Positions 1,343 to 49,204 of a stretch of DNA of 64,000 nt are shown one piece after another (the first letter of the stretch is position 1; each line of letters opens with the position of its first letter). The translations under genes and the position numbers were made by a program. The stretch spans positions 166,284,001-166,348,000 of the forward strand of contig OZ024740.1 of the NCBI GenBank assembly GCA_964016885.1, written 5' to 3'. The notes beneath the pieces were generated by a model. That model did no database searches. It saw only the letters and a program-made list of their open reading frames with translations, and was not told the origin of the DNA. The stretch is from Eledone cirrhosa. Taxonomy: Eukaryota.

Positions 1343-1538
1343 AGAAGAGCTTCTTCAGGACTAGAACTGTTTCATTCGTGAGAAATCATCAGGCAGATCT
1401 TATGAGCTTCCTGATGATTTCTCACGAATGAAACAGTTCTATTCCTGTAGAAGCTCTTCTATATTAACATTGTTATACTCTGCTATGTATTAAGTACCTT
1501 ACTTACTCTGGTTACCTCCGATTCAACCCAGAATAACT
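1341..1538 (+). mobile_element. Short PLE-type pLTR fragment, family A: inverted arm, HHR and tail, between (TA)n tracts
   Basis: 1341-1393 is the reverse complement of about 1410-1462; HHR at 1404-1456; TA repeats on both sides. Confidence 0.8.
1404..1456 (+). ncRNA. Type I hammerhead ribozyme (family A)
   Basis: gagcttc-CTGATGA-tTTCtcacGAAt-GAAA-CAGttctattcCTG-TA-gaagctc; 7-bp stem I, GUA cleavage triplet. Confidence 0.85.
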
Positions 1539-3852: not shown

Positions 3853-4071
3853 AAAAGATTCGGAACCCCGACGGCTGAGCTCCGGCCGTTTCGACAGCTA
3901 GATCCGAACTAAGCCTGCAGTACATGGTAGCTCAGTTCGGATCTAGCTTTCGAAACGGTGGAGCTCAGCCGTCAGGGTCCTGACTCTTTCTCTATTGCCC
4001 ACTCTACTACCCTAAGTAGCGAGTACTCTGGTGTGTTATGCTCCACCTGGTATATTACCACATCTTCTTTG

Positions 4072-4072
<1 letters not shown>
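3851..4072 (+). mobile_element. Short PLE-type fragment, family C: fold-back, 3' half of HHR and tail
   Basis: About 3863-3910 is inverted at about 3935-3982; GAAACGG...CCGTC; same family at 33594-33759. Confidence 0.7.
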
Positions 4073-4107
<35 letters not shown>

Positions 4108-4724
4108 TTGTCTATCTATGTATATATCTATCTCTGTAAGTGTGTGCGTATGTATGGGCGTGTGTAGTGCGTTCGTCCAATATTGGGCCTACATTGTAAG
4201 ATGTATTTGAATGATGTTGAGGTCCCTGTAAGAAGTCACTGTCAGAGTATTGAGCTGATCGTCTTGCAGCACTAGCTTCGATAGAGAGGGGAAACAAGCT
4301 GTCAATGGTTAAATTTGGTGGAGGGAAGCTCTATATGAAGGGGAAACACTACTTTGAAATCTCCCGGAGAAATTATGGATGGAGAAACAGAAAGGGCTTG
4401 GAAGTGGAACTGCCAGAAAGAATGATACTCATTCAATTCGCACTGGCATGGAAATAGACTATATAAAATTTCGCGTGATGAACATTTGCTTGAGAAACTC
4501 ATTTGCATATAATGTGAACTGGGCTGGTAATATTTCATTGGCAGTAGTATTAAGACATCGTTTAAGCGTTATAGATATGAATATGAAAAGATATATAAAT
4601 ATTTACTATACGTCTATATATACAATAATCACAAATATACACTTGCATTCACACACACACGCACACACACGCACACACACGCGCACACGCACACGTACAC
4701 ACACACACACACACAAATGTTTTC

Positions 4725-15485: not shown

Positions 15486-16220
15486 TAATTTAATATATCT
15501 ACTAACATAAGCGCACAGATGTACGCTAATGCCAGCAAATACACAGGTTATGTCATAGTACCTAGGTGGTTCAATGCAGGAGGATGCAGAACAATAATAT
15601 AAAAGACGTAAAATAAGAAAATTTAAAAAGAAAGTTTTTAAAAAAAATTTTAACTTACTTACTTAAATTTTCACTCCAACTAATTAGTTTCTGCAATGGG
15701 ATAAAGACAGTTACGTAATCTAACTGTCGAGAATTAATTGCGTCATCAGGGAGTCTATTCTCAGCTAAGTCTCCAGGCAATGCGCGGACACCGGGGACTC
15801 ATATAAAAATAATAATAATTCAGTAGATGGAACAGCTAGCGGGGACTGAATTCCATGCACTGTAATCCTCGCTGCCTCTGGTCAAATGGCCTATTCTAAA
15901 GAATCAATCACGTGATACAGAGGCTAGTCAGTAGGAATGGGATGGTAAGATGACAGACGCCTACTAACACCCCCAAAAATTTAGAAGTGGTTTTGGCAGG
16001 TTTGCTCGACAAATCAGTGATTTGGAGATAAATATAGATAATTTAATATATCTACTAACATAAGCGCACAGATGTACGCTAATGCCAGCAAAATACACAG
16101 GTTATGTCATAGTACCTAGGTGGTTCAATGCAGGAGGATGCAGAACAATAATATAAAAGACGTAAAATAAGAAAATTTAAAAAAAAAGTTTTTAAAAAAA
16201 TGTTTAACTTACTTACTTAA
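15481..16220 (-). mobile_element. Retrozyme-like element, family D: 553-bp unit, 1.33 tandem copies, ending in (TA)n
   Basis: Direct repeat 15481-15666 = 16034-16220; HHR at 15673-15754; no ORF. Confidence 0.8.
15673..15754 (-). ncRNA. Type I HHR with extended stem II (family D)
   Basis: actcc-CTGATGA-cGCAAT...gacagtta-loop-taactgtc...ATTGCa-GAAA-CTAATTAG-TT-ggagt. Confidence 0.8.
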
Positions 16221-18220: not shown

Positions 18221-18231
<11 letters not shown>

Positions 18232-18778
18232 AAATAATGAATAAAACAATGAAACAGTTCCTTATATTAAACAAAAAAGTTCATTATTTAACGATCGTTT
18301 CTAGGATATATATGTGTTAGAATTGGCATGCATATTCAACAGATCTATGTACAAAATTATACAAAATTATACAAACTATCAAAATTAAATATACATACCA
18401 AACACATATATATGCCGTCTTCAGAAATAATGATTATTTCTGAAGACGGCATATATATGTGTTTGGTATGTATATTTAATTTTGATAGTTTGTATAATTT
18501 TGTATAATTTTGTACATAGATCTGTTGAATATGCATGCCAATTCTAACACATATATATCCTAGAAACGATCGTTAAATAATGAACTTTTTTTGTTTAATA
18601 TAAGGAACTGTTTCATTGTTTTATTCATTATTTTTTTAATATTTTATCTTGACTCTGTATTCCGTTTATCTTTCACCGAAAGTGATTTTTCATTGCATCT
18701 CTTCTTTCCATGATATCCGGATTACATTGAGTTCTTCATACGGATTGGACACTACCGTAAACTCTTGGTAGATTTATC

Positions 18779-18782
<4 letters not shown>
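18221..18782 (+). mobile_element. Solo fold-back pLTR (family E) of the Naiad at 35-42 kb
   Basis: Palindrome 18221-18645 centred at 18432, then a tail matching 42271-42408; (TA)n on both sides. Confidence 0.9.
18433..18581 (+). ncRNA. Type I HHR with stem II domain of about 115 nt (family E); antisense copy at 18281-18432
   Basis: attattt-CTGAAGA-[116 nt closed by atatatatgtgtt/aacacatatatat]-GAAA-CGATCG-TT-aaataat. Confidence 0.75.
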
Positions 18783-27279: not shown

Positions 27280-28590
27280 TAACAGTAGGACAGTAAACCT
27301 TTTAGATGTCACTCTGGAATTAGACACAGGTCTCTATCGTCCATACCACAAACCTAATGAACATCTTAAAATACGTCAACAGAAACTCCAAACACCATAG
27401 GAGCATAATTAACTCAATAGTTAAAAGCGTTTCCTATAGAGTGTCCACTCTGTCGGCAAATAGAACTATCTTCAACCAGAACGCGGAATACTACAACTCC
27501 GCACTTGAAAAGGCTGGTTACATTGAGAAGATATCTTACAATGACCCAACTAGAACCGCAACGCCGCTAAACATAATCAGACGCTTAGAAACGAACATAG
27601 ACGAGGTCACCCCACCTAGAACAAATAATAACCTAAGGCCCCCTTTAGCCGGCAGGGTAGGCAGCGTCAGACACAACCGTCAAGGAGATAAAGCTATATT
27701 CTCCAACCCCAATAAGGACTCTGATTATTGCACACGTTTACGTAGTAATAGAGACAAAAGACATAACACCAACATATTACTAGGAACCCCTATGACATAT
27801 ACGCCTTACCAAAACGCACCCACACAACCACACAACCACAAAAACCACACTAACCACCGTAAAGCCCGAAGTAGAACTGTCACCTGGTACAATGCCTCGT
27901 ATTCTATACACGGTGCCACCAATATACCGGGAACCTTCTTCAGGGCTCTTGAACAATCTTTTCCACACACACATAAATACCACAAGCTCTTCAATAGACA
28001 CACTGTAAAATTCTCTTTCTCTACAGCACCAAATCTAGGCCACACAATAGCACACACTAATAGGACACAAATACGCAAACACATGGTTGCCCCACAACAA
28101 ACCACTACCACAACCCAGAACGAAACCACATACACAACACAACATCCGACATGCCAGCTCCACACAGCATGCCAACAACCGACAACGTGCCACCACACCG
28201 GTAACCCCCAATTGCAACTGCAAAAAACGGTTAGAATTCCCACTAAACGGGGAATGCCTCATTAAAAACATTATTTACCGGTGTGATGCCACAGCTGGCA
28301 ATAAAGAGTATTCATATATAAGTGCGACCACCACTACGTTTAAGGAGCGCTGGTATAACCATAGAAGCTCCTTTAAATATAGGATGAAACGATCCCAAAC
28401 TAGACTGGCCGATCTGATCTGGGACCTCAAGGACAGGAACATCGAATTCCAGGTCACATGGTCAGTCAAAAGACGCGTGGCCCAACTCCCCAGTGACAGA
28501 AACCACTGCAGGTTATGCCTGGCCGAGGCGGCTGAGATACTCAAATTAAAATCTGCCAAAAACTATGTCGGACATAATTATCAATTGTAG
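27280..28590 (+). pseudogene. 5'-truncated, frameshifted Naiad-type PLE polyprotein (RT thumb, linker, GIY-YIG)
   Basis: LDVTLELDTGLYRPYHKPN, RTVTWYN, LFNRHTVKFSFST, CNCKKRLEFPLNGECL..IIY...YISAT..FKERWYNH..SF, CRLC; colinear with the 36.8-kb ORF. Confidence 0.9.
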
Positions 28591-28705
28591 ACACACCAGC
28601 TTGAACACCTTCTCTGCACAAACATTCGGCCGAGGGCCGCACACTAACCATGACTCAACATAATAATAATCACCTTTGCCTATAATTTTCTTATTTTACG
28701 TTTTT

Positions 28706-33584: not shown

Positions 33585-33593
33585 CATATATAG

Positions 33594-33757
33594 GTAAAGA
33601 GTCAGGACCCCGACGGCTGAGCACCGGCCGTTTCGACATCTAGATTCGTCGGGGTCCTGACTCTTTTCCTATTACCCACTCTACTACACTAAGTATCTCG
33701 TGCATTATGTACTCTGGTGTATTATGGTCCACCTGGTTCCTTACCACACTTTCTTTG

Positions 33758-33759
<2 letters not shown>
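33594..33759 (+). mobile_element. Family C fold-back fragment
   Basis: aagagtcaggaccccgacg / cgtcggggtcctgactctt inverted pair; homologous to 3851-4072. Confidence 0.75.
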
Positions 33760-33808
<49 letters not shown>

Positions 33809-34219
33809 ATGTATACTATACATGTATTTATTATGTATATTATATGTATGTATATATAACTTTGATTAACTTTGATAACTTTGACAGAATTCAACCAGTG
33901 TTGGTCCATGGTATGTCTAACTTAATAGTTCTACTTGGGGAAGTGTTTCACATTATAAGTTTACAACCGAGTCATGTTTTAAAAACAGTGCCCCCCCCCT
34001 CATCCCTAGTGAAAAGTTGTAATTTTCTGAGAAATTTTCTAGTGTAGGGATTTTATCCAGGATCTCTTAGGCAATGGTCAAGGGAACGTTTGAATATTAT
34101 GGGATGTGTTTTGATCGTGATGTATTTTGGTATGATATTAAAGAAAGTGGGACAGTATCTCGTGCATTATGTACTCTGGTGTATTATGGTCCACCTGGTT
34201 CCTTACCACACTTTCTTTG

Positions 34220-34270
<51 letters not shown>

Positions 34271-34619
34271 ATGTATACTATACATGTATTTATTATGTAT
34301 ATTATATGTATGTATATATAACTTTGATTAACTTTGATAACTTTGACAGAATTCAACCAGTGTTGGTCCATGGTATGTCTAACTTAATAGTTCTACTTGG
34401 GGAAGTGTTTCACATTATAAGTTTACAACCGAGTCATGTTTTAAAAACAGTGCCCCCCCCCCTCATCCCTAGTGAAAAGTTGTAATTTTCTGAGAAATTT
34501 TCTAGTGTAGGGATTTTATCCAGGATCTCATAGGCAATGGTCAAGGGAACGTTTGAATATTATGGGATGTGTTTTGATCGTGATGTATTTTGGTATGATA
34601 TTAAAGAAAGTGGGACAGT
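33692..34619. repeat. Near-perfect tandem duplication of about 462 bp
   Basis: 33692-34156 = 34154-34619, with AGT microhomology at the junction. Confidence 0.92.
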
Positions 34620-35034
34620 TGAGGTGAAGTAGTTGTATCGTATTATTGCGACTTTGATTTCTCTAGTGGGTTAATAGCACGGGGATAAACCGTTAGTTGG
34701 ATTTTAACGGATTAATCAATATTATTTGTGTAATATTGGCGGTGGATTGGCAGTATCGGTAGAGGTTCGGACGCCATGCTTTGACGCATAGAGTTACGGC
34801 CCTTGCCATTCTGAGTTCAAATCCCGCCGAGGTTAACTTTGCCTTTCATCCTTACGGGGTCGATAAAATAAAGTACCAGTAATGTACTGGGTAATTTTCT
34901 GGCCTTGTGCCAATAGTAGAAACAATTATTTGTGTAATATTGATGGAATATTTCCCTACATTATACTGCAGCGATGAAGACAGTAGAGTTTTAGCTTTTT
35001 GTTTATTCCACCCTCAATAGTCATGGCATGTGGA

Positions 35035-35035
<1 letters not shown>
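34320..35035 (-). mobile_element. Decayed CR1/L2-like LINE 3' fragment interrupted by a SINE
   Basis: Homologous to 42507-43160 (3' end tcaaagttatcaaa); FKRSLD-like residues. Confidence 0.6.
34739..34924 (+). mobile_element. Young tRNA-derived SINE (probably octopus OK/OR type) with 18-bp TSD
   Basis: A box tggcagtatcggtag, B box gagttcaaatccc; TSD attatttgtgtaatattg at 34721 and 34925. Confidence 0.92.
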
Positions 35036-35094
<59 letters not shown>

Positions 35095-35956
35095 TAAAAA
35101 AATAATGAATAAAACAATGAAACAGTTCCTTATATTAAACAAAAAAAGTTCATTATTTAACGATCGTTTCTAGGACATATATGTGTTAGAATTGGCATGC
35201 ATATTCAACAGATCTATGTACAGAATTATACAAAATTATACAAACTATCAAATTTAATATACATACCAACACATATATATGCCGTCTTCAGAAATAATGA
35301 AATATATTTATTGATAATAACAACAATTCAAAATTACAGGTCTGTTTGGGAACAGAGTTCAAATTGACCAATGAAATACACAAAAAATATATCCAGAAAA
35401 TACAGTTAGGTGTGTGTATATATGTAAGTAACTTCGTTCACAGATATGCATAAAAATATATGTTCACATGCATACGCATGTCGAAAAAATGTATGTAAAT
35501 ACAAAAATTCAGGGCTAATGTCTCTGTATGTCTATAATCTACAGATAAAATACACACACGTATATAAACATATATACATTCATATATACACACATAAACA
35601 TACATTCACACACACACGCGCATATACGCATAAACATACACATAACCACGAACATACACACACACACACACCCACACACACACACACACACATATATGTG
35701 TATATATTATTATCATAAGCATATGGACATTAAGGCGCGCACATAAGCACTGCCACATACATTTAGATCCAGATACAGAAAGTAGGTGTGTGGGGGGGGG
35801 GTCAGTATTTACGGGTGTCAGACAAACTGCAATATTTAAAAATGTATCTATAAATTTAGAAATAAAAAGAAGAATATTAAAAAAATATATATATATAAAC
35901 AAGTAAAATATAAAATACACATCGATATACATATATATATATATACATATATACAT

Positions 35957-36013
<57 letters not shown>

Positions 36014-36233
36014 TATACACTTACATACACACATATATACATAGAGACACATACATATACACATATAAATACATAGACACATATACGTACACACATATAT
36101 ATATATATACATATTCACAACACACATATATATATATATATACACATATATATATACACACACACACATACACATACATACCCATACATACATATATATA
36201 CACACACATACACACACACATATACACACACAC

Positions 36234-36276
<43 letters not shown>

Positions 36277-36424
36277 TACATACATACACATATATATACA
36301 CACACACACATACACATACATATTCGCATATATACACACACACACATCCATGTATGCATATACACATACAACTACACGCTCACACAACTCAGACATACAT
36401 AAATAAAGAGATATACATACACAC

Positions 36425-36473
<49 letters not shown>

Positions 36474-36547
36474 CATACATACATATATATAAAATAAATA
36501 AATAAATAAATAAATAAATAAATACACACAGTCAGACAATTATGCAC

Positions 36548-36592
<45 letters not shown>

Positions 36593-36604
36593 TACACATC
36601 AACT

Positions 36605-36648
<44 letters not shown>

Positions 36649-36746
36649 TCACATATACACGCACACATACGCATATATATACACACACACATACACATAG
36701 ACATATATATATACATACATTTAAACACATACATATATACATATAT

Positions 36747-36783
<37 letters not shown>

Positions 36784-36830
36784 CACAATCATACACCCTT
36801 ATTTACATGCGCACATATGTATTTTTATAG

Positions 36831-39248
36831 GGAACCTCTTTAAAGAATATACCAATACCTTCTAAGGATGACTTCTTACTCCTTATGATACAGAAAACTA
36901 ACCAATTTATCAGAAGAGTTAGATGGAGGGCCTACCACTTCGATAAAAAATCTAAATATGCAGATAGGAAATATATGTATGATTTCAATACTTACAAGAA
37001 TCCACCACACAACTCTCTACTTGAAGACTTTGAGAAAGACCTTTTTAATTTAATTAAACACCTCAAATTTAAGAAGTATGAATCTGTCTTTCAAAAGGAC
37101 CTTGATTCTACCCTATTGGACCTAAAAAAGTCTAAAAAAATCCATGTCCACTCGGACAAAACAGGAAACTTGTATCACATGGATATTGAAGATTATAATG
37201 AGTTCATATATAAAGAACTCAGGAAAAATTATAAAAAATCTAATAATGCGTCACTCACCAACATCAACAACAAAACACACAACATAGTAAAAAAACTAAA
37301 CATTGAAGATAGAACTGAACCTTTGGCATTGAAAAGACCACACTTCAACCTGAAGGATCATAAATCAAACTTTAACTCAAATCCTTCTATAAGACTTATA
37401 TGTCCCTCCAAATCTGATATTGGAATAATTAGCAAACAAATTTTGGATAGAGTCATCCCACAAATAAGAAAACACGTTAATTTACCACTCTGGGAAAACA
37501 CTTCCCAGGTAATTAACTGGTTTAAAAATATTAGATGTAAATCTTCTGCTTCTTTTCTACAATTTGATATAGAAAATTACTATTCTTCTATATCACCTAT
37601 ACTCCTGAACAAAGCTTTGATATTTGCTAAAAATAGATCTAACTTAACTTTGGATGACATTAATATTATTACACATGCTAGACTAACACTTATTGAATTT
37701 CAGAATGAATACTGGACCAGAAACACATATAGTAATCTATTTGATATTACTATGGGTTCAAGCGATTCCGCCCAAATTACTGATCTTGTGGGCCTCTTTC
37801 TCCTTTTCAACATAAATGCTTCCTTTCCCCACCTTAAAGGTGGTTTATATCGTGATGACAGTCTTCTTCTTTCCAACAACCTTAGCCTTTCAGAAATAGA
37901 AAAAAACAAAAAGCTTATTAGAACTTTCCTTAAAGACTATTATAGTCTTCATATTACTTTTGAAAACACAAGTAAAGTAGTTAATTTCCTAGATAAAACT
38001 TTAGACTTAGCTACGGGTATCTACCAACCTTACCATAAACCCAACCAAAACTTACACTACATACACTCACAATCTGATCACCCTAAATCTATCCTTAAAA
38101 ACCTTGCATATAATATATCACTTAGAATTTCTAACCTTTCGTCTAACCAAGATGTATTTGATAAAAATGCGACCTTCTATAACGAAGTTCTAGATAGAAG
38201 TGGCCACAACAATAGATTAGAATATATACCTTCTACTAAAAATACTATAAACATACAACCTAATATTACCAACAAACACCAAATGAAAAGTACACACCTA
38301 AATGCCACCCACACTATACCCCAAAATACCAACAACTCCTCTAATATAAAGTATAGTAACTCTCAAAAAACTACTCATCATACAACTCTAATAAATGTTA
38401 ATAATAAAACTCCTAATAAACAAGATAAAACACCTAAATCTATAAATCTAACTAAAAATGTGCGTGGTGAGATCATTAACATTAATCCCCCTAGTAAACA
38501 TCAGGATACAACCTATAAAAATAATAAACAACATAGAAACCGTAATAGACGAGTTACTTGGTATAATTCTCCATTTAATTTACAAATTAAGGATAATATT
38601 GCTAAAAAAATTGTTTATATCCTAGAGAAAAACTTCCCGCCAAACCACAAATACCATCAAATCTTAAATAGGTCAACAGTTAAATTCTCATACTCAACAA
38701 CCAAAAACATAAAACAAAATATAAGTGCCTATAATGCATATAAATGTAAGAATACCATAAGTATACCACCAATACATCAAACTAACCATAATATCTCCTC
38801 AAATACAGAATTAACGAAAGGTTGTAACTGTAGAAACAAAGCAAACTGCCCATTAAAAGGAAATTGTCTTGTTAACAACATAGTTTATAAATGTAATGTT
38901 AAAACTAAAGATTCTATTTGCTCATATATAGGAGCTACTTCTAACAATTTTAAGGTAAGGTTTAATACCCACAAACATAGTTTTAAAAATGCCGCACTAG
39001 CTAATACAACATCTCTAGCAGAAAAAATCAATAGTTATAAAAATAAGAATATAGAATATGATTTGACCTGGAGTGTGCTCAAAAGAGCCACCCCTTATTA
39101 AAATAATAGAAATGAATGTAGATTATGTTCCCAAGAACTATTTGAAATAATGAAATCTAAGGATATCCTATTAAATAAGCGACATGAATTAATTATATCG
39201 TGTAATCATAAACTAAGAAAAACATTTAAATATTATAAACCTAATTAA
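36831..39248 (+). CDS. PLE reverse transcriptase + GIY-YIG endonuclease polyprotein (one in-frame TAA at 39099; extreme N-terminus probably clipped by the inversion)
   Basis: SLKNIPIP...[58 protein letters not shown]-x5-[11 protein letters not shown]...YIG..FKVRF..H..SF; past the TAA the frame continues CRLC...LNKRHE...CNH. Confidence 0.93.
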
Positions 39249-39707
39249 TAATATAATTTTAGAAATTAATATAAAATTTAATTTAAATGTTAGTTAACCT
39301 ATAAATTTAATTTAATTAAAATTCTACTACAGTTGAGATTATAAAATATTGTGTAATCATAAATTGTGAAAAACTTTTAAATATTATTAACATAATTAAT
39401 ATATACTTTGTAAATTAATTTATAGATTAATTTTAGTTTATTTAACCTTTTATTAAAATTCCTTTACAGAGGAAATATAACAAAATAGCGTGTAATCAAT
39501 GACAGAGAAATATTTTTTAATATTATAAATCTAATTAATGTACAATTTAGAAATATATTTATAATTTAATTTTAATTTAGTTAACCTAAAATTTTATTTT
39601 AATTAGCTTAAAATTAAAATTCTAATACAGATGGATTGCAGAATATCATGTAATCATAAACTGAGAAAAATGTTAAATATATACCTAATTAATATATTCT
39701 TTACAAT

Positions 39708-39804
<97 letters not shown>

Positions 39805-40165
39805 TAATTTTTATTTTTTGTTAACCTATAATTATATATTACTATAGATAAAATACAAAATCTGTTTTAATTATTATAAACCTAATTAACATATACTATA
39901 GAAATTAATATATAATTTTTAATTTAGTTAACCTATAATTTATATTCTACTACCGATGAAATACTTGATTTGGTTTTTTTCCCTATTACTAAATTTATTT
40001 CCTAATATTGATACCATAATGTTAATATTTTTCATTTAGTTATGCTATAATTAATACTCTACTACTGTTTAACTTCAAAATTCCGCTTCAAAGATTATAA
40101 ACCTAAGTAGTATACACCTTAGAAATCAATATATTAACTATTTTTAATTTAGTTAACCTATACTT
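39195..40165 (+). repeat. Degenerate tandem repeats of about 150 bp derived from the ORF end
   Basis: tgtaatca(taaa)...aatattataaacctaattaat...ttagttaacct recurs at about 39200, 39352, 39492, 39649, with partial units at 39870 and 40093. Confidence 0.8.
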
Positions 40166-40441
40166 AATAGTCTACTTATATTAAAATGCATAATTTTGCT
40201 TTCTTTCTTACATTTCCTAATACTGAAAATACTATGTAAACACATATTATGATCTAGATGCAATTTAATATTCTATGCTCCTTGAAACCTATTTTTACTA
40301 TAATCCCCTCCCCCCTCACTATAATTATTTGTATTTGTAAGCGTGGATGTACGTATGTATATGTAGGTAGGGATGTATGTTTGGGTGCTTGTATGTGAGT
40401 ATAAAAATACATATGTGCGCATGTAAATAAGGGTGTATGAT

Positions 40442-40524
<83 letters not shown>

Positions 40525-40662
40525 ATATATATGTATATATGTATGTGTGTATATGTATGTATATATATATATCTATGTGTATGTGTGTGTGTGTATATAT
40601 ATGCGTATGTGTGCGTGTATATGTGAGTATATATATATATATATATTTGTATTTGATGTGTG

Positions 40663-40701
<39 letters not shown>

Positions 40702-40767
40702 GTGCATAATTGTCTGACTGTGTGTATTTATTTATTTATTTATTTATTTTATATATATGTATGTATG

Positions 40768-40828
<61 letters not shown>

Positions 40829-40891
40829 GTGTATGTATATGTGTGTGTGTGTGTGTGTGTATATATATTTACGTGTGTATATATATATATA

Positions 40892-40932
<41 letters not shown>

Positions 40933-41086
40933 GTGTGTATGTATATCTCTTTATTTATGTATGTCTGAGTTGTGTGAGCGTGTAGTTGTATGTGTATATG
41001 CATACATGGATGTGTGTGTGTGTGTGTGTATATATGCGTATATGTATGTGTATGTGTGTGTGTGTATATATATGTGTATGTATGTA

Positions 41087-41151
<65 letters not shown>

Positions 41152-42067
41152 GTGTGTGTGTATATGTGTGTGTGTATGTGTGTGTATATATATGTATGTA
41201 TGGGTATGTATGTGTATGTGTGTGTGTACATGTGTGTGTGTGTATATATATATATGTGTATATATATATATATATGTGTTGTGAATATGTATATATATAT
41301 ATATGTGTGTACGTATATGTGTCTATGTATTTATATGTGTATATGTATGTGTCTCTATGTATATGTGTGTGTATGTATGTGTATATATATGTATATATAT
41401 ATATATATATGTGTGTATGTATATATGTATATATATATATATGTATATCGATGTGTATTTTATATTTTACTTGTTTATATATATATATTTTTTTAATATT
41501 CTTCTTTTTATTTCTAAATTTATAGATACATTTTTAAATAGGCAGTTTGTCTGACACCCGTAAATACTGCCCCCCCCCCCCCCACCTACTTTCTGAGTCT
41601 GGATCTAAATATATGTGGCAGTGCTTATGTGCGCGCCTTAATGTCCATATGCTTATGATAATAATATATACACATATATGTGTGTGTGTGTGTGTGGGTG
41701 TGTGTGTGTGTGTATGTTCGTGGTTATGTGTATGTTTATGCGTATATGCGCGTGTGTGTGTGAATGTATGTTTATGTGTGTATATATGAATGTATATATG
41801 TTTATATACGTGTGTGTATTTTATCTGTAGATTATAGACATACAGAGACATTAGCCCTGAATTTTTGTATTTACATACATTTTTTCGACATGCGTATGCA
41901 TGTGAACATATATTTTTATGCATATCTGTGAACGAAGTTACTTACATATATACACACACCTAACTGTATTTTCTGGATATATTTTTTGTGTATTTCATTG
42001 GTCAATTTGAACTCTGTTCCCAAACAGACCTGTAATTTTGAATTGTTGTTATTATCAATAAATATAT

Positions 42068-42210
42068 TTCATTATTTCTGAAGACGGCATATATATGTGT
42101 TGGTATGTATATTAAATTTGATAGTTTGTATAATTTTGTACATAGATCTGTTGAATATGCATGCCAATTCTAACACATATATGTCCTAGAAACGATCGTT
42201 AAATAATGAA
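42068..42210 (+). ncRNA. Type I HHR in the Naiad pLTR (family E); antisense copy at 35149-35301
   Basis: ttcattattt-CTGAAGA-[104 nt]-GAAA-CGATCG-TT-aaataatgaa; 10-bp stem I. Confidence 0.78.
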
Positions 42211-42404
42211 CTTTTTTTGTTTAATATAAGGAACTGTTTCATTGTTTTATTCATTATTTTTTAAATATTTTATCTTGACTCTGTATTCCGTTTATCTTTC
42301 ACCGAAAGTGATTTTTGAATGCATCTCTTCTTTCCATGATATCCGGATTACATTGAGTTCTTCATACGGATTGGACACTACCGTAAACTCTTGGTAGATT
42401 TATC

Positions 42405-42487
<83 letters not shown>

Positions 42488-42506
42488 ATATATATATACA
42501 CACATG

Positions 42507-43160
42507 TAATTTTGATAACTTTGATACATTTCGGCGAGTATTGGGCCAGGCCATGTTAAACTTAATAGCACTACCTGGCGAAGTCTTTTAAAACAGCATT
42601 TGGACACCATGGCCCACTCAAGTAGAGAGTTATTCTTTACGGTAATATATCCGGGTGTAGAAGGTTTATCCGGGATATATTGAGGCAATTTGTCAAAAGA
42701 TGTTTTGAACTTTATGGGGTCTGTTTCTGTTTTAATGTGCTTTGGTATAATGGTTTCATTAGCGTGTTCTGTTTTCATTTCGTTACACTGAGAGCTGGAC
42801 CAATTGAGGTGAAATAATTGTGCCGTAATGTTGTTATGACATGCGAGTGTGATTTTTGTTGTGGCCGGATAGCGTGGCGCCCAAGCCTTGGGTGCAACAT
42901 ACAGATGATGCGAACATCATTTGGGCGACGCTGATGGAATATTTTCCATATCATGCAGACGACGTATCGCTAACGGCGACGTTAGAGAGAATACAGTTTG
43001 AGTTTTTCAAGTTTGAGTTTTTCTAGTCAACCCCAAATGTCAAGGCCTGAAATGCCATCTACCTTTTTCGTGATTGACATTACATTTTTATGAAACTTTG
43101 TTTCCTGTGGAGAGACCAAAGTGGACAACAGTATTCAAGGTGGGGTCACCCATTGTGTAT
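42507..43160 (-). mobile_element. CR1/L2-like LINE 3' fragment
   Basis: FKTSFDKLPQYIPDKPSTPGY..NNSL resembles the C-terminus of CR1-group ORF2. Confidence 0.65.
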
Positions 43161-48712: not shown

Positions 48713-48804
48713 TATATATATATATATTGTTATACTTTGGGAGGGTCATGTTGCCAATAAGAAACACACCCACCAGTTGCTTTCCACTTCAATTTATTAT
48801 AATA

Positions 48805-49197
48805 AATTTATAAATTTCCGGTTGGTTGGTTGGTTCCACAACCAGATGGTTGTTTATATATCGTCAAAGTTCTTTCGTCACACATTCTGTGACCTCTTCA
48901 GTGACTGGAGGTTCTTTTCTTTGTTTTTTGTGCCTCTCCTTTGTTCTGTCCTACGCCATCTTGTTTTCAAACAAGATGGCGTAGGACAGAACAATAGAGA
49001 GGCACAAAAAATAGAGAAAAGAACCTCCAGTCACTGAAGAGGTCACAGAATGTGTGACGAAAGAACTTTGACAATATATAAAGAACCATCTGGTTGTGGA
49101 ACCAACCAACCAACCGGAAATTTATAAATTCCTAAATATCGGTTTCAACACACGTTTTCAGATAAAGAATCTTGCTAAACAAATTCAGAAACGAAAT
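48805..49197 (+). mobile_element. Fold-back PLE-type fragment, family G
   Basis: 48805-48966 is inverted at 48969-49130, then a tail and (TA)n. Confidence 0.8.
49030..49072 (+). ncRNA. Minimal type I HHR-like motif (family G)
   Basis: gtca-CTGAAGA-gGTCACagaatgtGTGAC-GAAA-GAAC-TT-tgac. Confidence 0.6.
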
Positions 49198-49204
49198 ATA
49201 TATA

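Follow-up and report, generated by a model that had tools for sequence, protein, structure and literature searches.

A decayed, 5′-inverted Penelope-like element of the Hydra clade in a (TA)n microsatellite of Eledone cirrhosa, and the end geometry of its family

The Hydra clade of Penelope-like elements (PLEs), with Hydra-1_Obim, is characterized in the accessible parts of PMC8557442 by a reverse transcriptase (RT) followed by a C-terminal GIY-YIG endonuclease, the motifs RWK, DKT and CxCX5C, the absence of CCHH, a CxxC and a CxH flanking a conserved E and N, a type I hammerhead near the 3′ end, (TA)n targets and 5′-inverted copies. A length below 3 kb is usual there, not defining. Naiads share with the family reported here the PLE RT, the (TA)n preference, the inverted pLTR and the tail, but carry, according to the same parts of that paper, the endonuclease before the RT, DKA, an IFD of about 20 additional amino acids between RT motifs A and B, and a CCHH finger with CxxC inside the GIY-YIG and CX2-5CxxC before it, and no canonical hammerhead. 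A tail at only one end of the insertion is already known in PLEs (PMC8557442 and PMC3846280, accessible text). In PAc, a Poseidon element of Anolis carolinensis (Frangieh et al. 2024, PMC11167929, as far as its accessible text goes), two fixed 3′ ends bound the tail, and in vitro work accounted for the tail as the interval separating two internal RT start sites; the target is AT-rich and the uncut hammerhead RNA is the template. The Penelope element of Adineta vaga (PMC3846280, in part) possesses N-rich inserts between RT and endonuclease, a tail on a single end, an inverted pLTR and a palindromic junction. A search of the literature for a study of a Hydra-clade protein found none.

The locus studied here is situated in a stretch of 64,000 nucleotides from E. 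cirrhosa, which is called the window. It is a copy from a new family of the known Hydra clade, as judged from its sequence. As a locus it is ordinary: a dead, decayed, 5′-truncated and 5′-inverted retrotransposon copy. The left part of the (TA)n target (35034 to 35088) is followed by an inverted, 5′-truncated copy of the 3′ region of the element on the minus strand (35089 to 36829), which matches 40393 to 42273, contains a type I hammerhead motif at 35149 to 35301 and has the short end, without a tail, as its outer end. On the plus strand follow the ORF remnant (36830 to 39248), encoding RT, thumb, an N/T/K-rich linker and the C-terminal GIY-YIG, and a long 3′ region (39249 to 42070) with family-borne TA/CA microsatellite patches; degenerate repeats of the ORF end occupy 39195 to 40165. 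A second type I hammerhead motif (42068 to 42210, plus strand; CUGAAGA...GAAA, long stem II, palindromic stem III) has its predicted cut, from pattern and fold, between 42200 and 42201. The plus-strand tail of 135 nt (42274 to 42408), which harbors TTTCACCGAAA at 42297, extends from the short end (42273) to the long end (42408 to 42410), and the right part of the (TA)n target covers 42408 to 42498.

The first-pass annotation had described inverted and direct pLTR copies with little divergence outside the microsatellites. The inverted arm is real, with 7 substitutions and 3 gaps per 693 aligned bases of its non-microsatellite part (one block with 1 substitution in 462 bases, another with 6 in 231) and 21 substitutions plus 21 gaps over the entire arm, but a direct pLTR upstream of the ORF is absent. 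Of the two arms, one is the main copy's 3′ end and the other the 1.74-kb inverted copy.

As the first-pass annotation had read it, the frame runs open from 36831 through 756 codons to a TAA at 39099 to 39101 and resumes behind it for 48 codons via CRLC, LNKRHE and CNH, ending at the TAA at 39246 to 39248. The RT motifs, all on the plus strand, are DKT at 37155, motif A at 37563, motif B at 37752 and YRDD at 37848 to 37859; behind the thumb an N/T/K-rich insert of about 95 residues (38240 to 38530) is predicted to be disordered. The Hydra-type endonuclease (38823 to 39245) comprises CxCX5C (38823 to 38849), YIG (38925 to 38933), CxxC (39117 to 39128) and CxH (39201 to 39209), with the conserved E at 39135 and N at 39174. 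In the window protein these correspond to RWR, DKT (residues 109 to 111), YRDD (340), CNCRNKANC (665) and YIG (699), followed by CRLC, E769, N782 and CNH. These RT and endonuclease motifs are conserved among 76 database homologues, with the last residue of RWR being K in 40 and R in 20 of them. Pfam detected neither RT nor GIY-YIG in this protein. In a structure model of the 806-amino-acid protein of one sister copy (pLDDT 84.6), the folds closest to the predicted RT were telomerase RTs (best E value 5.6e-9), and for the last 152 residues the top five Foldseek rows were GIY-YIG nucleases, T4 EndoII and I-TevI, albeit as weak matches (E values 0.23 to 0.61).

The assignment to the Hydra clade rests on motifs and on comparison by eye, because the RT tree did not include published Hydra or Naiad sequences. 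A single ORF combines the RT with a C-terminal GIY-YIG (the fold match being weak, E value 0.23) and lacks an IFD, the distance between motifs A and B being 63 amino acids compared to 66 in Neptune-like and 65 in Poseidon-like RTs. RWR/RWK, DKT, CxCX5C and the CxxC and CxH around E and N are present, CCHH is absent, and a canonical hammerhead motif, by pattern and predicted fold, is located near the 3′ end and conserved in the sisters. The Hydra rows of the supplementary alignment of PMC8557442, in its accessible part, match the window protein by eye. The 36 RT cores in the tree came from the window, a single sister, 30 homologues (the first ones having the anchor motifs) and, from the same genome, three Neptune-like PLEs and one Poseidon-like PLE; without published references, the tree separated these last four from the remainder at 100/100. 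The DKG and CCHH of Neptune and Penelope/Poseidon elements and the CX2-5CxxC of Neptune do not occur in the window protein, and its RT core is only 23 to 33% identical, over short stretches, to the Neptune-like RTs of the genome. The 24-nt pattern of Hydra-1_Obim had no match in this genome. Compared with the published Hydra elements (PMC8557442, accessible parts), the tandem units of this family, at 5.2 to 5.7 kb, are about twice as long as the reported 2 to 3 kb, so that the usual length below 3 kb does not apply, and the tail has 135 nt instead of 30 to 40. An 811-amino-acid ORF with a 95-residue N/T/K-rich insert, a 3-kb microsatellite-rich 3′ region and a hammerhead stem II of about 100 nt also set the family apart from Hydra-1_Obim.

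The copy had been thought to be one nonsense codon away from completeness, which understates the damage. The private TAA removes the CxxC, the conserved E and N, and the CxH from the endonuclease; the ATG and the first 17 coding bases are gone, too. Six more codons preceding GTS, plus a 5′ leader, are present in 28 of the 29 sisters with a 5′-end match, beginning with ATG in 27 and ATA in one; here, start codon and leader were lost because the inverted arm joins at 36829/36830. Sisters without the stop exist, as had been sought: all 29 that were scored possess CAA at this codon. Compared to 36 sisters (39 minus three near-duplicates), the window copy has 16 rare sites, of which 12 are unique, and all 12 are non-synonymous, including the stop. 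Three of the 11 private missense changes are at conserved sites, I389K, N416D and A453V, with residues absent from all 76 homologues. From its sequence, this copy is decaying neutrally and is judged unable to make an active protein. The proposal that the insertion is young fits the family, not this copy, which is among the older of the 37 because its 12 private changes exceed the median of 6; its private divergence of about 0.5% makes it young in a broad sense.

The sisters were sampled as best-scoring matches and not at random, and the 1,741 and 961 candidates of a first look, obtained with the endonuclease piece and the ORF start, respectively, are not copy numbers. Six of 39 sisters, two of them near-duplicates, have ATG-to-stop frames of 806 to 811 amino acids; two further ones begin with ATA and one is without a start yet open over 807 codons. 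Rebuilding the window copy for an assay, as had been suggested, is not needed with natural open frames available. Every open-frame sister carries lesions of its own, such as YRDG in L064 and small in-frame RT deletions in L075 and L076. Among private variants, 77 of 290 are synonymous (neutral expectation, 26.5%), compared to 47 of 74 variants common to at least three copies (Fisher P = 7e-9 versus private). As read from these substitutions, the private variants are neutral, and purifying selection acted on the shared ones.

The expected insertion into (TA)n was borne out, for the window insertion on both sides and for the family at 42 of 43 outer ends: 25 of 26 short ends (42273) and all 17 long ends (42408 to 42410) adjoin (TA)n. 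So do 29 long and 11 short ends of a partly overlapping set scored by eye. Where both outer ends were seen, one was short and the other long, in 8 of 8 insertions and in 11 of 11 from loci selected on the long end (19 of 19 together). The two ends are 135 nt apart, and TTTCAC(C/G)GAAA is found 23 and 12 nt behind them and nowhere else in the window element. A mini-copy of the same family inside (TA)n at 18221 to 18781 consists of a short and a long arm head to head, both stopping at the equivalent of about 42070 to 42071.

It is highly probable that the locus is a decayed, 5′-truncated and 5′-inverted Hydra-clade copy in a TA microsatellite. The protein of an intact sister likely made the insertion by target-primed reverse transcription. 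Its endonuclease would nick both (TA)n strands, by analogy with the in vitro work on Poseidon (PMC11167929, accessible text), and each DNA end would prime cDNA synthesis at an internal point of the RNA, 42273 for one end and about 42410 for the other. The resulting short-ended and long-ended arms would meet head to head, in the window as one arm of 1.74 kb and another of 5.58 kb that halts 17 bases short of the ATG. The RNA itself would begin with the first hammerhead base, 42071, and be copied without prior cleavage; priming near the RNA 5′ end would thus yield the common stubs of 200 and 340 nt.

Evaluation of 42071 as an RNA start needs to consider where the arms end. In 30 loci chosen on the basis of the tail only, ignoring the ribozyme, 44 of 50 arms had their 5′ ends within 41871 to 42225; among these 44, 18 ended exactly at 42071 and three at 42205 to 42206, and none at the predicted ribozyme cut at 42201. 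All loci together gave 22 of 73 arm 5′ ends at 42071, and an extra G preceded this base in 9 of the 22, of which only 5 were unambiguous (P = 0.12). The fixed 5′ end of the short copies, on the plus strand, is the A of TCATT, an initiator-like word, and 42071 is the first base of hammerhead stem I. PLE transcription starts are known to be in the pLTR. Taken together, 42071 probably marks the start of a capped RNA, as far as the copies themselves tell. However, in ORF-bearing tandem copies, 42071 is not the stopping point of any of the 20 upstream pLTRs, so that a simple start model needs a jump to a downstream pLTR or read-through RNAs of greater length. Alternatively, though this is considered rather unlikely, the pile-up may come from amplification of a mini-subfamily or from a hot spot at stem I where RT stops or folds back. 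The position at the 5′ edge of stem I, the palindromic nature of many junctions there and the extension of tandem copies beyond 42071 would agree with a stop. Non-palindromic junctions, on the other hand, also halt at 42071, and several of them carry an extra G; an amplified mini-element is at odds with junction sequences that vary between copies and with the at least five haplotypes that take part in the 42071 ends, also in ORF-bearing copies.

With 42071 as the RNA start, a more specific form of the model can be offered as a tentative possibility: a capped RNA from 42071, RT starts 203 and about 340 nt inside it, and cDNAs that are inserted as stubs or jump. Each RT start would lie just upstream of a TTTCAC(C/G)GAAA hairpin, and the cDNAs, resembling strong-stop products, would either be inserted, giving the abundant stubs, or transfer to the 3′ pLTR and copy the remainder. 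If so, PLEs would combine target priming with an LTR-like strand transfer, and the element itself would give rise, by run-off, to the TA-targeted hammerhead RNAs of its family. No paper on Penelope-like elements with strong-stop and strand transfer was found, and none on capped run-off copies was among the papers listed, as judged from the listings.

The first-pass annotation had also named this element the best candidate enzyme for TA-targeted hammerhead RNAs, which holds only for the stubs of its own family, such as 18221 to 18781; otherwise it is unsupported because another Hydra family of the genome has more open frames. That second family, 42% identical over the RT, possesses a full 714-amino-acid frame in 14 of 30 loci, a third Hydra fragment resides in the window at 27281 to 28618, and Neptune-like families are also present. 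A role of this family as the main trans helper of the other TA-targeted hammerhead and hairpin RNAs of the genome would accord with the same target and head-to-head footprint, its recent activity and open frames, and with proposals of PLE trans-mobilization in print (10.64898/2026.07.22.740005 and PMC3846280, accessible parts). It is nevertheless quite improbable: the window's further hammerhead motifs, at 1404, 15673 and 48863 to 49072, have no 3′ sequence in common with the family, and TTTCAC(C/G)GAAA, in this form, did not turn up in these other hammerhead elements. This family is one helper candidate among several.

The reading as a nearly intact Naiad, a single codon short of complete, retains hardly any chance despite the long frame and despite features that Naiads likewise have, namely the (TA)n target, the inverted pLTR and a tail on one side: it is refuted by the domain order of RT then endonuclease, and DKT in place of DKA, a GIY-YIG without CxxC behind a CxCX5C linker instead of CCHH, the 63-residue spacing of motifs A and B, the hammerhead, the missing ATG and the absence of a GIY-YIG-like frame ahead of the ATG, seen in all 6 sisters examined for it, all disagree with it. 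For the RT tree, neither the 50 GIY-YIG loci fetched nor a search with the Naiad pattern yielded a Naiad sequence.

Adineta vaga Penelope (PMC3846280, accessible text) belongs to another clade and has a 31-bp tail and visible target-site duplications. PAc (PMC11167929, accessible text) is also from another clade, and its two start sites are adjacent and within the ORF, whereas in this family both would lie in the 5′ leader, separated by 135 nt. That text does not describe for PAc a constant 5′ end of short copies like the one found here. With natural open frames and sharp ends, the family is a usable model. The sharp ends at 42071, 42273 and about 42410 predict exactly the RNA start and the priming points, and this end geometry is the part of the family worth testing. 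If the model of 5′-leader priming and jumping is true, the pLTRs, tails, tandems and stubs of PLEs would come under one mechanism.

Degenerate repeats of 110 to 150 nt each, which stem from the terminal part of the ORF, occupy positions 39195-40165 of the window, and such repeats form the start of the 3' region throughout the family of the main element. A SINE-like repeat of about 200 nt is abundant, being present at 34742-34952 and at about ten other places, among them 19406, 23342, 26118, 31699, 46975, 47298, 52052, 52723, and 55100.

At 33593-34619, a 462-nt tandem flanked by TA, with units 99% identical, follows a GC-rich hairpin whose minus strand contains CGAAAC. The ACCAGAG motif ahead of this tandem is reminiscent of a hairpin ribozyme. 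Related pieces were found at 3970-4131 and 42400-42588. A head-to-head palindrome of another family at 48790-49200 carries one hammerhead motif per strand (48863-48905, minus; 49030-49072, plus), and further type I hammerhead motifs at 15673-15754 (minus) and 1404-1456 (plus) are unrelated in sequence to the family of the main element.

Another, distinct Hydra-type element is represented at 27281-28618 (plus), between (AG)n and (TA)n, by its decayed and frameshifted 3' half, which holds the thumb, the CxCX5C linker, and GIY-YIG. Neptune-like elements of the same genome possess open frames of 938 aa (L160), 1096 aa (L162), and 636 aa (L163). In the second Hydra family (L180-L209, e.g., G000:C28:46943007), CTGAAGA and CTGAGGA cores are present in the leader as well as in the 3' region. 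Its 714-aa frame is intact in 14 of the 30 loci, and many other loci stop at about 480 aa, which suggests a shared RT-only subfamily. Within the family of the main element, an identical premature end at 724 aa is common to three sister copies (L065, L072, and L097), so that an endonuclease-truncated variant may have been copied in trans.
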